From: Podarcis liolepis
Taxonomy: Eukaryota
Assembly (NCBI GenBank): GCA_965112155.1
Contig: OZ218115.1
Length of the DNA stretch: 64,000 bases
Strand: one strand, 5' to 3'
This document shows, in pieces, positions 24,001 to 51,000 of the stretch. Below the pieces are notes generated by a model. It made no database searches and was not told the DNA's origin. It saw only the letters and a list, made by a program, of their open reading frames with translations. The position numbers and the translations under genes were made by a program. Within the stretch, counting starts at the first letter, position 1, and each line of letters starts with the position of its first letter.

Positions 24001-27000
24001 CAATAGTCCATAATGGGTTAAGACAAAGTACGGGCCCCAACTGCCTTCACGTGCGCTACTTGCGAAGCTGGCATTCCCTTACGCTGGCACAAGTCCTGTC
24101 ATTCAAACTCATCACATGTTTGCTGAAAGTGGAACAGGTATCAAAGGGAGCTACTGAAAACAGTTCTTGTTTAGCAGCAAGCGCAGAGGAGATAATTTTT
24201 TTAAAAGCCCAAAACAAACAACAACTAAAGCAGGGCTGTGTCCCTTCAGATATAGGGACTACAATTCTCACCATCCCTGACCACTGGGCCATGCTGGCTA
24301 TGTCTGGGAGGAGGTGCACCACTGCAAGTGCCACAGCCTCCCCCCCCCGCAATCCCTGAACTAGAAGCTTTAACTGACCAATCAGTGGCACTGCACTTTA
24401 AGCGCCCACCTGATCATTTTGGTCCTGGCAAGGTTTTAACAGACCAAGGAATACATATGCTTCTTTTATAGCCTAACCAGGGAAGTGGCAGCTTTTATCC
24501 AGGTTCTGTGAAGTTCTATATTAGCAACTGACCCAGTTTTCAGCAGAGACCTGCTTTGAGAACAAGAGGTCCCTTCCAGATGGAATATTCCAACCAGCCC
24601 TTTGGGCAGGGAAGCCTGACTGCCCTCTCCTCTCTGACCTGGGGCAGAGGTGGAGCCCAATGCCAGTGTGAGACCATGCAGCGGAAAAGGAAGCAGCGAG
24701 AGCAGGCAGGCAGGCAGGCAGACTTGGGGTGGGGGAAGGAAGCCATCAGCAAGCTGCTTACCTAGCCCATGACCTCCAATCGACACTGAGGTGAAAGGGC
24801 AAAGAGCAAGGGTAATCAGAGTGAGACAAGAATCACACGGAACAGTGCACAATTAAAATAAAACACAGGAGAACATAGGCAATGTGGCATTTCCCTCCCC
24901 ATGGTGGGTGAGCGGTGTGGCCGGATGTGCCCGGCAAAAAGCAGTCGATGTGGGAGGGCGTGGCATTATTTTAGCGTGGCTCGCCCCACCCTCCAGCAGC
25001 CCTCACCCCCCATAAGACCCTCACCTGGGAGGAGCGCTCACCTGTGACGGTGCACTTGCTGGCGTCGCCAGTGGGCAGGGCCCGGATGCGGTACGGCGAG
25101 TAGGGGATCTCATCCCCACCGTACTTGATGAGGATAGTGTACCGGCCGGTCATGTCTGGGACATACGACACAGTGTAGGTGCCATCTTGGTTGTCACGGA
25201 TGGTGGCTTTCTTGGGCTTGCCCTCAGGATCCTGGCCACGGCACAGCCCAGGAAGGGGGGGTTAGAAGGAAGGCAAGCATTTCAAGTTAAGAAGCGGCAA
25301 CTGCAGCAGCCATTGTAAACCTAGGTCCCTGCCCCAAAGTTGTTATGGTCATGAGAATCTGACAGGAATTTGTATGAGTGAAAACCCACTTGAACCCTAA
25401 ATGGCACAAAAAGACAGCCGCCACGAGCATTTCTTGCTGTTACATAGGAAAGCACTGAAAGGACATTTTATGTTTAAAAGGGGTGGGGGGCTGAGCAAGG
25501 CATGAATAAACTGGGATTACCAAGGAGGAGTTGTGAAATTGGTCAGTGACCTACACAACACCCTTGCTATGCTTTAGATGCAAGCTCAGCTTAAGGTTGC
25601 CACCACTATAGACCTCTGGTTCAAAATGAGTACTGAAATCTACTGTCTTGCTGCAGTGGGATACTCAGGAGTCAAGAGACTCTCACCAAGTGCAGGGTTG
25701 GTGGCCCTTCTAAGTATAGGATGAGAAGGGTAGCTTGAGTCAAGGGCAGAAAGCTCTGGACAATGAACAAGGCAGCGTTTTCTGCCATTTGGAAATGTTA
25801 TCAAAGCTCCCACCCTCCGAGTACAAGACAGCAAGTATGACTATGCAACCATGGGGCTTATAGAAATCAGTGAGGATGTTGCCACAAGGCAGTGCCACCA
25901 CGTGACTGAATGAAGGAGCTCACAGTCCACCTGACTGCAGCTTATGTGTACCTTCAGACTTGTCCCAGTCTTTTCCACATCATCTCCCACTGATTTATCC
26001 CCCAAGTATCTACCGTGGAACCGACCCCTCTGCCCTGAAGGCCTTCTCACAGCAACCCCCAACCTGCATTCATCTCCCCTTCGGACATTGTTCCACTTAC
26101 GGTGATCTGGACGGCCAGCAAGCCCTCTCCCGCATCCTTGGCATCAATTGTGAACTCCACAGGCAGGCTGGCTGGCACACCTGTTGTGTTCAGCCCTGGG
26201 CCACTAGCCTTTACCTTGCTGGCATCATGTGTGGGAAGAACCTTCACCTTGAATGGACTGTGTGCATAGAAAAGAGGGAGGGAGAGAAGTGCCTCTGTTA
26301 ATGTTAGGCAACTGACAGAAATGGCCACACCCCATCCCTCAACTCCAGGGTGCACAGGTGTTCCCCCACAGGATCATTAAGGGTCACTCATCTTTCTCTT
26401 ACACAAAATAAAGGCATTATAATCTGAGGCCACTGCAGCCTGATGGAATCCTCTACTAATGAGAAGTTCCCACTGACAGGGCAGCACGTTCAGCAGAAAC
26501 AACGGTAAGTGTAAGACACTGTACACTGGGCTCAGTGTTCCAGGAAAAGCTTTCAAGTCTTGTGCCAGTTTTTGCTCTAACACAATTTGCCAGTCGACAG
26601 TAAGAGACAAAAAGATCTGTGGCATAAGGTTTTGCTTCCAACACTGATTACATGGGAGTCTTTAATAGATTTGCAGAGGCCCTCTCTCAAACAACTTGCC
26701 CAATGTGTTCAATGAAACTTTAAAAACATTATCCTGAGAGGTAAGTCCCCTAGCCTCAGATTCTCAAGTGCTGGGTTTACAAACACTCTGGATTTACAGT
26801 AAATGGTGAAATCATATGAAGCTTTGGAAACATCAAAAAGCAGCCATTGCTATTAGAGTCTCTGCCTTGGCTCAGAGGGGCTAGAAGCTTCCTTATGAAT
26901 GTCAGTGTACCAAGCTTCTGTCCTAAGGAGGCTTCTGAGTCTCACTGTCTTCCCTCTGGCCTACAGTGGCCAACCCACAACCCATACCTGCGGGGCACCT

Positions 27001-45000: not shown

Positions 45001-48000
45001 CAGAAGGAACTTCACAACATACAGAAAAAGCAAAACAAAACCCATATACCTGCCAGTTACATATTACCAAGGAAGATCATGCAAGCATGCCCTCACCTTG
45101 CAGAATATAAGCCAATGAGTTCTTGTACATCATGTTTATCACAAGTCTCAGCATGGCTCCCAGGGAGAGCTACTAGGGTCAAATGCCCACTGGGTCCATG
45201 AAGCACACGGAATATACCTGATCTCAGTCACTATCCCAGTCTTACTCCCAAATAATAGAAGACAAAAAGGAGGATTCAACTCTTATGCACACTATTCTGA
45301 GCACCCTGGAGGAAAGGCAAGATAATACAATTGGGAATGCTGCCAAGAACAAGTATAGGTTGGGAGTGCTTCACAGGTGGAAGAGCATCTGCTCTGCATG
45401 AATGTATGCAGGTCCCTAGTTCAAATCCTGGTGTCTCCAGGGATGCCCTGTCTAAAATCCTGGAGAGTCACTGCCCATCAGTTCAGACCAGGGGTGGGGA
45501 ACGTCTGGCTCATGGGCGAAATCTGTCCTACCAGGCCATTTCCCCAAACCATGCCCACCTGCCCACACCTGGCACCATATGCAATGTCAGGTGTGAGGCA
45601 GGTAAAGACTCAGCTAGATTCCCTGCAGAAAGTGGGACTGAACTCTAGCACATCAGCTAATGTGCAGGGGGTTCGATCGCACTTGACCGCTATCTCCCTT
45701 CGCTCCTGCTGGTCAACTTTGACAGGTTTGCCCACAGGGTTTGGTCAAAAAGATTCCCCACCCCTGGCTAGACAATATTGAGCTAAAGGAGCCAGCAGCT
45801 TCTTACCATCCTCACATTGGCAAGGAGGTGGGGCTGGTGGGTGGGACTCTGGTCTCCCCTCACCCTGGTGCCCATTTGCATTCAATTCCCCCATCACACT
45901 TCTCTAGTAACTGCAGCCCTTACACCAAAGCCCCATGGAAGGGGCCTGGATCAAAACACTGACACACAGCTGCAACCAGCTTAAGTACAGCTTGCTGTTT
46001 GGCAGCTCCAAAGAGTCCTGGATGTCGTAACATTATACTGCGCTCTGCTCCCCACCACTGACAAACCCAAGCATCCCTTGAGGGCTCTTTGCAGGCTACA
46101 GCCTCCAAGGGAATAAAATGCAGTCACATTCTCAAGATGTTATCTTCCAGCTGGGAGAGATCTTCAGCTCCGACAAATGTCTCAGGCTCCTGAAGTCTGC
46201 CTGGGGCCTAGTTACCCAACCTCTGCTTTGAATGCTTGCGGCTTGAACCCAGGGTTAGAACTGTCAAAATCCAGCTCCTCCATCATTCACATACCTCTCT
46301 GCATTGCTGCAGCCTCTCCTTCCAGCCCAGACAAGAACCCAATTATGTTTTCTACAGTGGTTTGTGGCTCTGCTTGCCCCGCCATGACTCCACAACAGCC
46401 ACTCAATTTACTGCTTTGCTTCCTTGCCTCAGCACATTTCCATGCTTGCACAAAGTACAAATGCCACCATCAGCCCCTCCTATAGACCAGTTACACTTGC
46501 ACCAGAAGAACTTCCTGCTGCAAGACCCAAGAATTTTAAAACAGTCCATGGGCAAGCAAGCGAGATCGATAGCTTCTTAGGCTTCAAAGAGTTTCTAGAG
46601 CTTGCCATGTCTGAGAGTCAGTGGAGCGCAAATCACCACGTCCCCATCAATGGATGCTCCAGCACAGAAGAAGCAACAGCCTCCTGTGCAATCAGCCTGT
46701 TCCCTCATTGGTAATAAAGAACTCTGCAGCCGTGTTAGAAACCGAGTTATGAAGGCTAGGAGCTAAATGGCACCTTAAACCTAGGTTATGGGAGCAACAA
46801 GGGAATGGCCAGGCACATTTTTTTATAACAATACAAAGCTGAAGATGAACTGCAGCTAAAATATGTTCATTTTGCACATGGTCTGGTCCTTCCCCTGCCC
46901 GCCCCCTAATATTCTTAAGAGGGTCTCATCTCCAGTCTTCAGAGAGTAGCTGGAAGTGGGGAGGCAGAAAAAAGTCCTCCTTTCTTTCCACTCTGCAGTT
47001 TTAATCTGAAATCTTAGGCACAGTTCTGCGCCCAGAAACCTCTCGCACTAATGAAAGTCCCTGTCACAAAATGTGCTTAGAACAATGGGTGTTTTGAACA
47101 CTGCTCTGCAGTTTCTTCCTGTTCCCCAAACAGATCTGGGCATGCACTAGCCAGATGGGCTTTGCAGTATACTGCTTGCCTTCCAAAGGGGCATTACCAT
47201 AGAAGCTGGGCGTCTGCTTTAAGACATGTGCAGCAGCTGCACCCCGAATGCCTCTGAGTCTATGCAAAGTGTCATCAGGCTCCCAACACTTCCCACACAG
47301 AGTAATTAGACTATAGCACTTCCAGGCCAAAAGGCAGAGCTTCTGGGTTAAGTGCAAATCCCACCCTCCCATGTCTGAAACACAGAGGGTGGGGAAGACC
47401 AACACACACACTGGACTTACTTGGGCCTTTTATTGTCACTTTGAGCTCTCCGCTGCCAGCGCCTTTTGTGTAGACCTTGAAATCTGCTGTCTCCTTCACG
47501 CGGACACCTTTGGGCTGGAGGCCTCGACCCACGGCCCGGCAAGCATTTGGGTTGCATGCTGTAGCAGCAGAGAGAGGGTGGCAGAGAGGGTGAGCGTCCC
47601 TATCGAGTCCAAGTAGAATTCCAGTTTTCCCAACTGGGTGGGTCTTTGCCATCATTAACGCGCCAGGCATTCAACTAGCTCCGCCCATGAGAGGAAGGCC
47701 GGATCTCAAGCCCATAGGCTGCTCCTCTGGACAGAAGCAACATGCACCCTTGCCACAGGTCCCCACCCACACCTGCCAAGAGTGAAATACCATTGGCCCT
47801 GGATCCAGGCGCCGAGCAGCTGGGAGGAGATGAGTGCCAGCAGAGATCCAGGGAGATGGCTCTTCAGAGTAAGAGAGGACAGAGCAGAGGAGAGCTGGGC
47901 CAGGACAGGTGGAGGTAGGCAGAGAGGAGAGGAGAAGCGTTAGGAGCAGAACAAAGAACCACCCCCCTTCTGGTCACAAAGAGGAAACCAAGCAGCAGCA

Positions 48001-51000
48001 GTGGTGTTAAGGTTAAAAGAGACCCCACCAAGAAGCCCCGTGCCAGATGGGAGACTCACCCTGGCCAATGGTGACCGTATATGGGCTGCGGGGGATGGGG
48101 ATTCCCCCAAAGGTGATGTAGATGGTGTAGGTGCCCTCCAGAGTGGGCTTGTAGGTGCAGCGGTAGGTGCTATTGCCTTTATCCTCCAGCTGCTGCTCCA
48201 CTGTCCCTTTCTTGCCAGTCGGATCTTGGATGATTACCTCGATTTCCCCAACACCAGCACCTGGGGGGAGGGATTAGGGTAAGATGAAGAGAGGCAGGTG
48301 TTAGGTGGAGATAGTGCATGCAACCTTAAGTGTTCAATTACGGGAAGGCCTTTGATCTGGACCAAGAACACAGCAATGGGTTTCCAGGGGGAAAATAAAG
48401 CCCTGCACAGCTCCTTGCCATTTTCTGTAGTTAGCAGTGCTGTGAAAGAGAAACATTATGCAAGTTTTGCTTGCTCTATTTAATTTACGTAGGAATTGCA
48501 GGTTTCTTGGGGCAGCATTTTAAGAACAGAATTCAAGTGCTATTTATACTGCATCCCTACCTTCCATGCTTAGGGCACCCTGTAGCCAAGCACCTAGCAA
48601 TTAAAGACATTTAAGAGCAGCCTTAAAATTTGTTTGCAGCTTCTTTCTAGCTAGTGGAGAAAACACCACAATGTCCCCAAGTTAAAACTTCACTATGTTT
48701 CAGCCTTTGGTAACAGACCCATTTCTGAAAGCAAAGAAATGGAAGATTTGTTTGCTACAGTGACTGTGGGCTGCATGTTATGCTCTACTTAGCACTGGAT
48801 AGGCTTCAGCTAGGATTTAGTGGGAGACCTTTCATGCTTGCAAGATGAGGCCAACAATTCAGACAGACTTGCTTAGGCAGCAACTAGCCTGGAAGCAAAG
48901 GTACTCATCTTCAGCCTCAAGAGTTCAGAGGAGACTATTCTAACATCCAGCTATAAATAAAAATGAAACGCCAAGACAAGAGACCAATTGTTTGCAAAGG
49001 GCTGTTGGGACAAGGAAGTTGCCTTTTGCCTGAAGGGAGAAGAGCCGAGAGTTTCAAGGCAGGCAAGGAGAGAGGGTGACATTCCTGGATAAGAGAATCA
49101 AGGATGACTGATCTCAAAGCAAGCTCTACTGTGTACTCTGAATCATTGTTTCATTTCATATCCTGCCACGTTGAATACAGTATTACTCAGGGCAGTTCTG
49201 AATTCACAATTACACATATGAAACTTAAGAACACGTGGAATCATGAAACTGTATATTCCTAATATAAATGTCTGATCATTCTGCCTCCTACACTATGGCA
49301 TGCTGAAGCAACAGGCATAAACTTCACCACAATGTTGACCAACTAAAGCCTGGACAGCAGGAGCAGAAAGCAGTTCCTCCAGCCACAGCCTACCTTGAAG
49401 GAGTCAGAGTGGGGCTGTTAAGCCAACTAAGCTGCCCTCCTCCATGGACAGCCTTAGGCAAGCTACTCACTCACAATCTCTTCCTTTTGGTATTCTCTGT
49501 AATCCTCCCAACAATCTTATGTGAAGCACTGGACACTTAAAAATGCTATGTGTAGCCTGACTTGTTCCCAGCTTGGAAGCCCTCCCACCCAGAGCTGTTA
49601 GTCTCTGAAGACATGTTGCTTTGACAAGCAACTCCGAAAGCAGGAGAGCTAGAAAGGTTCCACTTTGGCGAGAAATTGAAGCCTCCAACACAATTACTCA
49701 GTTCATAGTGAGAAAAGTTCTCCAATGACAGTTTATTCATTGCCAACAATTCAGGTGTCCCCAACACAGTACTCCCCCCCCCCCAGTGTTGCTGGACTGC
49801 AGTTCCCATCCTCTGACCATTGGGGCCAAGAATGCTGGGGCTGATGGGAGCTGGGGACCAAGAATGGACCAGGTTGGGGAACGGTGGCTAAAATATTTAT
49901 AACAAGTTTCTAAGAAACCAGCCAACTACGTCATTTGCTTTCAAGCTGCGTCCAGGCTTCAGCTGGCCAACACCCTTCCACCCTCTCAGAACCAGCACCC
50001 CGCCCCCATCCACTGACCAGCAGTGAAGATCTCAAAGTAGGTGGTCTTGTTGGCAATGTTGCCCACCGGCTCCAGGCCAGGACCCTGGGCAGTGACCTTG
50101 CTGGCATCCCCGTGCGATTTGTCCACATTCACCTCAAAGGGGCTCTTGGCAATGTGCTGCCCAGCAAACAGTACCGTCACCTAGAGCAAAAAGTGAAGGT
50201 CGTCAAATGTTGATCACTGAGATGAAGGCCCAGTTCCAGAATTTTCTCCCAATCACCTACACGATATACAGACTCTTACCTTGTGGATTCCTGTCACCTT
50301 TGGCACATACCACACAGAGAACGTCCGGTTCTTGTCATTGTTGGCAATGACCTTCGCCTTGAGGACAGACAGAGGAAGTTCAGTAGTGGTTGGTATTCTA
50401 CAACCCACCCAAAACACCCCCCATAACTCTTCCGCCTCAATGCCTGGCCATCCAGACCTCCAAGGACACACTCCCAGGGGGACTCACTTCTTCCCGATGT
50501 CCAGCAGGGTCCTCCACATAGACTAGCACTTCTCCCTGGCCAGCACTGATCGTTTCAACGGTGAACTCTGCCTTCTTCTTCACCATGTTGCCTGTGGGCT
50601 CAATGCCTGTGAATTGATCAGACACAGTAGTAACTGTACCACCCCTGGCCTGTGATGCCATCAATTTGTACAGCAGTGGTTCTAACATCACCTCTACTGT
50701 ACAGCCTAGATGACCTCAGGAAAGCCCACAAATGCTAGCTAGAGCTGATGGGAGAGCCACAGAGATGGTACAGAGCAAACCATCACAAGGCAATCACAGG
50801 GTGTTGCAAGGAAGAGGTTAAAAAAGCATAAAGGTAAAGGGACCCCTGAACATTAGGTCCAGTCGTGGCTGACTCTGGGGTTATGGTGCTCATCTCACTT
50901 TATTGGCCGAGGGAGCCGGCGTTCAGCTTCCGGGTCATGTGGCCAGCATGACTAAGCCGCTTCTGGCGAACCAGAGCAGTGCATGGAAATGCTGTTTACC

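Follow-up and report, generated by a model that had tools for sequence, protein, structure and literature searches.

The FLNA gene and its intron 9

The minus strand of the window, by which we mean the whole 64-kb stretch of lizard DNA that was analyzed, carries the filamin A gene, FLNA, of which exons 2–28 were modelled with an open frame of 1599 codons. The host gene is FLNA, as a first-pass annotation of this DNA had proposed, and not FLNB or FLNC, based on the identity of 43 of the 45 residues of the exon 10 peptide to the solved human filamin A and on a tree of exons 4–9 with 33 rows (the window and 32 named proteins), in which the window falls in the FLNA clade with support of 96/97 and has a gecko protein as its nearest neighbor (94%). 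FLNA spans almost the whole window. Its first coding exon (61991-61880, minus strand) lies in a GC-rich region and starts with a Gly/Ser-rich run, and the last ~260 residues of protein P0002 have no match in the window, so that the 3' end of the gene is probably outside it.

Exon 9 (48060-48260, minus strand) has 201 nt and ends in phase 1 in our gene model, and exon 10 (47421-47558, minus strand) has 138 nt; both lengths are the same as those of the corresponding exons in mouse and human. The intron between them, intron 9 (47559-48059, minus strand), is 501 nt long, compared with 537 nt in human and 552 nt in mouse, as computed from supplement coordinates. The flanking exons of 201 and 138 nt confirm that this is the intron which houses the FLNA poison exon of mammals. 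A review names that exon exonN and calls it mammalian (PMC8652244), while the label "exon 9N", which the first-pass annotation had used, was not found in our literature search. A search for tandem repeats in intron 9 returned none, consistent with its earlier description as repeat-free; one 16-nt repeat in two copies was found and carries no weight.

Anatomy of the candidate cassette

When the sequence of intron 9 was re-read, every feature previously reported there was found in its place, all on the minus strand. The predicted branch point, CCTAAC (47939-47944, with the branch A at 47940), sits inside a 71-nt AG-free zone before the first candidate acceptor. A CU-rich tract (47862-47945), predicted to serve as a PTBP1-binding silencer as well as a polypyrimidine tract, is 79% pyrimidine and holds 10 PTB-type motifs in 84 nt. 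Acceptor 1 (47894-47896; exon start at 47894; 7.2 bits) is the first AG past the branch point, which is the AG favored by the scanning rule, and would give exons of 104 or 122 nt. Acceptor 2 would start an exon at 47861, and acceptor 3 (47819-47821; 6.9 bits) is the least supported of the three, its tract coinciding with a gap of three codons in P0008, one of the related proteins described below. Two candidate donors follow. Donor 1, ATG/GTATTT (47785-47793), is weak at 1.3 bits, and donor 2, CAG/GTGTGG (47767-47775), is the stronger here at 7.1 bits. Farther downstream there is a UGCAUG, a motif of the RBFOX type (47741-47746), which is probably incidental or lineage-specific.

The six exons that these sites could define have lengths of 104, 122, 71, 89, 29, and 47 nt, and recomputation confirmed that all are 3n+2. 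None of them contains an internal stop when read through the true phase-1 junction, and, as had been claimed, all six options bring exon 10 into the frame of an otherwise out-of-frame TGA at 47498-47496. Nonsense-mediated decay calls for a stop that sits 50–55 nt or more before a junction, and this TGA precedes the donor of exon 10 by 75 nt.

The most likely cassette exon is the 71-nt option from acceptor 2 to donor 1 (47791-47861), although its boundaries are predicted; its body is conserved in P0006-P0008. This option spans 0.40–0.54 of intron 9, and the mammalian exon spans 0.41–0.52 of the intron in human and 0.42–0.52 in mouse, so that in relative position this option fits the mammalian exon best, with the exon from acceptor 1 a close rival. 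Six of the seven AGs upstream of donor 1 share a frame (47969-47798, minus strand), including three, at 47969, 47966, and 47798, that were not listed earlier. We consider this shared frame to be probably a coincidence because relatives shift it.

Features at the background level and the CU-rich tract

Several of the features that make the cassette look convincing at first sight are common elsewhere in the gene. Based on splice-site matrices built from 27 introns of this FLNA gene, the three acceptors score 6.9–7.6 bits, values matched or beaten by 2.4–3.5% of 2175 decoy AGs. The donor ending an exon at 47791 is equalled or bettered by 20% of 1738 decoy GTs, and that ending one at 47773 by 2% of them. 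For the five acceptor/donor pairs tested out of the six, the other introns hold 8–77 pseudo-exons that are at least as strong. The position of the stop is weak as evidence since 11221 of 12720 random pseudo-exons (88%) would also be poison, in the looser sense of causing any frameshift or stop. Across 32 kb of intron there are 13 copies of TGCATG, and the six 3n+2 lengths do not amount to six independent facts. Splice-site strength, the poison frame, and the TGCATG are arguments of little weight.

The CU-rich tract stands beyond the background of the gene. Its motif count or its pyrimidine share was reached by none of 2801 windows drawn from the other 26 introns, a comparison in which the last 60 nt of each intron were excluded and the edges of the tract were picked after looking. 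CU-rich motifs of the PTBP1 type are present upstream of the candidate exon, as predicted sites. The next-richest PTB-type clusters in the gene, at ~49127-48980 in intron 8 and ~39883-39730 in intron 16, each have 10 motifs per 150 nt, versus 13 in intron 9.

Conservation of the block in close relatives

A search with the exon 9 protein yielded 17 proteins among 32 candidates. Of these, the relatives examined were P0006-P0009, at 94–95% identity, and five proteins at 65–77% were left out. P0006-P0009 each consist of exon 9 with read-through into both of the flanking introns, and 62–63 of 66 residues are identical to exon 9 of the window. In frameshift-aware alignments to the window, the intron 9 parts of the four proteins scored 187, 201, 160, and 80, compared with maxima of 44, 50, 47, and 35 for shuffled controls. 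Their intron 8 parts were at the null level (27, 26, 20, and 31 vs maxima of 30, 29, 27, and 33), a control in which three of the four read-throughs are short, at 18–24 aa.

Since P0006 and P0009 read intron 9 in different frames, together they fix many of the underlying bases. In 47909-47790 the window agrees at 66 of the 72 positions so fixed, versus 54 of 79 in the stretch 48029-47940 (p = 5e-4, Fisher test); the bin in between (47939-47910) has 23 of 30. The CTAAC of the branch point is forced by the two frames, and at acceptor 1 the sequence CCAGCTCTC is identical in P0006 and P0009. Peptides across acceptor 2 match the window in P0006-P0008. The only relative to reach donor 1, P0008, keeps its ATG/GT, read in frame as Met-Val, and the exon there would be ~62 nt. 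P0008 is three codons shorter where acceptor 3 has its tract. Past donor 1, neither GCATG nor the CAGGT of donor 2 is encodable in P0008, where AGGT is, and the UGCAUG expected downstream of RBFOX-activated exons is likewise not encodable in this protein, which runs 24 codons beyond donor 1. In P0006 and P0009 the spacing of acceptors 1 and 2 is shorter by a single base, and an exon from acceptor 1 would be ~103 nt, in a frame that hits a stop just before donor 1. This change in spacing implies that a uniform 3n+2 length is not the conserved trait.

Judging from these peptides, the block 47945-47790, comprising the branch point, the tract, and the exon body, is conserved in all four of the close relatives examined. 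Searches with peptides from the intron block recovered nothing beyond the relatives that had supplied them (3 of 8000 candidates and 2 of 1.84 billion) and gave no match to the block in a mammal, bird, turtle, or crocodile. Two bird read-throughs compared with the block scored at the null level, no spliced inclusion product from a squamate was found in protein searches, and the ESM Atlas returned only generic filamin clusters, under 0.9.

Gene models from fish and a frog

With a fragment of gecko FLNA as the query, a further search returned 69 proteins out of 365 candidates, and 34 named proteins were examined after pooling with the exon 9 search. Among the 15 named proteins that the tree places in the FLNA clade, three (P0035, P0036, and P0010) have an extra segment after exon 9. 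All three come from "hypothetical" gene models, that of P0035 being faulty elsewhere too, with an odd N-terminus and a missing internal stretch. In P0035, from Pampus punctatissimus, exon 9 is followed by a 27-residue insert (~80 nt), then by exon 10 in the shifted frame predicted for the lizard (18 of 18 residues compatible, null maximum 13), and a stop. P0036, from Ilyodon furcidens, has the same insert (19/27 identity to that of P0035) and then an apparent read-through of the donor, and does not reach exon 10. P0010, from the frog Ascaphus truei, has an insert of ~97 nt and enters exon 10 in the other shifted frame (42–43/47). As the residue before exon 10 in P0035 and P0010 cannot end in AG, we infer that their inserts are cassettes and not extended acceptors.

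These models share the exon 9 junction and the FLNA clade with the lizard gene, and in P0035 and P0010 exon 10 is frameshifted and the protein ends early. The inserts, of ~80 and ~97 nt compared with 62–104 nt for squamates, are described as poison exons in no paper that we found. Their sequences are not significantly similar to the lizard block: 16, 29, and 17 of 100 shuffles scored as well, and a joint fish profile was equalled by 11 of 50 real intron tiles. The best cross-class match to the block was that of Pampus, in one of three frames, with an uncorrected p of 0.01. The fish and frog models speak for a poison exon in this place among bony vertebrates, and not for its homology with the lizard block. 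The earlier claim that the switch predates the mammalian neocortex fares accordingly: the gene models are consistent with it, and a significant sequence link to the block was not found.

Two models from the FLNC clade, P0039 (Crotalus adamanteus) and P0043 (Anguilla anguilla), have a proline-rich segment after the equivalent of exon 9, with a similar end motif, and in P0043 this segment runs in frame into exon 10. The paralogous FLNC intron may therefore hold a coding alternative exon, judging by these models. A literature search for "filamin C exon 9a" found nothing.

The mammalian exon as a comparison

The mammalian exon is 57 nt long (PMC13078869; a supplement row of PMC11188260; bioRxiv 10.64898/2026.02.19.706765) and lies at chrX:74240815-74240872 in mouse and chrX:154365744-154365801 in human, between exons of 201 and 138 nt (PMC13078869 supplement). 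The mouse values given in PMC13078869 show a PSI of 0.11–0.17 at E11, 0.85 at E18, and 0.64–0.83 in cortex, with values mostly <0.1 outside the brain and 0.16 in one testis sample. The same source reports CTCTCC and Ptbp CLIP peaks upstream of the mouse exon and increased inclusion on Ptbp knock-down. Its mouse table also gives a model flag of nonNMD and a PSI change of -0.004 on Upf1 knock-down, so that even there not every dataset shows decay.

Since 57 nt is 3n, the mammalian exon does not poison by frameshift, and, being both 3n and NMD-flagged, it presumably must hold a stop of its own. The six lizard candidates differ on both counts, as they are 3n+2 and free of stops. There is no plausible 57-nt exon in intron 9 of the window, where the three AG..GT/GC pairs at that spacing all have poor donors. 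An ancestral 57-nt exon running from acceptor 1 to 47838 was also considered. The window has no GT at that point, and none is encodable in P0006-P0008 as read by eye, so this idea stays a lead. The ends of three things coincide at 47838-47837, namely the ungapped core conserved with P0008, the weak best match of the fish exon (47876-47837), and the 57-nt stretch from acceptor 1. No named truncated isoform from a mammal was found in protein searches.

Elsewhere in the gene, a 24-nt microexon with clean splice sites was located at 24762-24785 (minus strand) through a peptide pattern. It has the length of the alternative 24-nt FLNA exon of mouse and human (PMC13078869). In this reptile the length of a second known FLNA cassette is thus preserved to the nucleotide, whereas that of the poison candidate is not.

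Proposed mechanism and alternative explanations

Considering the observed anatomy, the frame and its stop, the unusual tract, and the conservation in relatives, we put at about 0.7 the probability that the block 47945-47790 is a conserved poison cassette which PTBP1 silences through the CU-rich tract, which is released in neurons, and which exposes the TGA of exon 10 and leads to decay. Where PTBP1 is high, in progenitors and non-neural cells, exon 9 would be joined to exon 10 and full-length filamin A would be made. Where PTBP1 falls, in neurons, the exon would be defined by donor 1 together with acceptor 2 (71 nt added) or acceptor 1 (104 nt added), spliced through the branch point at 47940. 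Inclusion would shift exon 10 onto the TGA at 47498-47496, and the transcript would be subject to nonsense-mediated decay, with any product stopping at ~533–544 codons. Common descent of this cassette with the mammalian 57-nt exon is also something that we infer.

An alternative with regard to descent is that the lizard exon is a real poison exon whose origin is separate from those of the 57-nt exon of mammals and the inserts of fish and frog, through repeated convergence on PTB control in intron 9. The lengths and stop mechanisms do differ among the groups (57 nt in frame in mammals, 71/62 or 104 nt in squamates, ~80 nt in fish, and ~97 nt in the frog), similarity between classes is not significant, and the mean phastCons of the mouse flank over 35 vertebrates is given as 0.231 (PMC11188260 supplement). 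However, the lizard shares the intron with mammals, as well as a near-equal relative position and a CU-rich tract of like type, and comparisons derived from peptides are weak in power at such distances; the best fish match, while not significant, falls inside the conserved block. We therefore regard independent origin as unlikely.

Much the same can be said of the prospect that the block is a conserved element which is not meaningfully spliced in, be it a PTB-bound silencer or decoy, a control of intron retention, or a DNA enhancer. Consistent with such an element are the absence of an inclusion product from protein searches, the weakness of donor 1, the fact that the 5' part of the intron can also be aligned (68%), and the variation of acceptor frames among relatives. 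It sits poorly with a conservation peak that covers the branch point, acceptors, and exon body, with the ATG/GT retained in P0008, and with a known mammalian exon at the same place; moreover, an Rfam search of the block found no RNA family and a fold energy test of it nothing unusual (z -1.04). This, too, seems improbable to us. A chance pseudo-exon in neutral intron sequence, although compatible with splice-site strength, 3n+2 lengths, and a UGCAUG that are all at background, is largely refuted by conservation of intron 9 far above shuffled controls with intron 8 at the null, and by a CU-rich tract unmatched in 26 other introns.

The proposed poison cassette would matter beyond this lizard, given that the FLNA poison exon is a classic example both of neuronal differentiation governed by splicing and of brain malformation with a deep-intronic cause. 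Among the papers listed by our literature searches, which took in neither the primary paper nor splice databases, none was seen to report a counterpart from a reptile, amphibian, or fish. If the cassette is real, the switch is older than the neocortex, and selection has acted on the poisonous outcome and not on the length of the exon or the position of the stop. We suggest, tentatively and at somewhat less than even odds, that the poison switch in intron 9 of FLNA goes back as far as the bony vertebrates and has preserved its function through changes of means. The means would then be an exon of ~80 nt with a frameshift in teleosts, one of ~97 nt in the other frame in the frog, one of 62–104 nt in squamates, and, in mammals, one of 57 nt that carries its own stop. 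On this view, the silencing of filamin A as progenitors become neurons would be ancestral to vertebrates and would have been inherited by the neocortex, and variants in periventricular heterotopia could be modelled in fish. The coordinates given here define exact junctions that can be counted in existing RNA-seq.

Relation to known poison exons

The lizard element resembles mammalian exonN in its gene, its intron, its relative position, the CU-rich PTBP1-type motifs upstream, and a predicted premature stop. By prediction it would work in the same way, but it fails to reproduce the 57-nt exon itself: the window candidates are 3n+2, place the stop in exon 10, and have several tandem acceptors. 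The proposal that it is the counterpart of the mammalian exon thus stands with regard to gene, intron, and relative position, and falls short in length and stop mechanism. Inclusion in neurons and control by PTBP1 have been demonstrated for exonN, whereas for the lizard they are predictions.

A wider comparison is with the PTBP1-repressed, NMD-stimulating cassettes of non-neuronal genes such as Bak1, Iqgap1, Ripk1, and Hps1, as presented in PMC11188260. That class was defined in mouse cells by knock-down and cycloheximide, whereas the lizard element is known from its sequence. The lizard element shares with the class an intronic context that is conserved, here across the four close relatives examined. 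In those genes PTBP1 motifs lie by the cassette and its inclusion in neurons lowers the mRNA, and the same is predicted for the lizard FLNA cassette.
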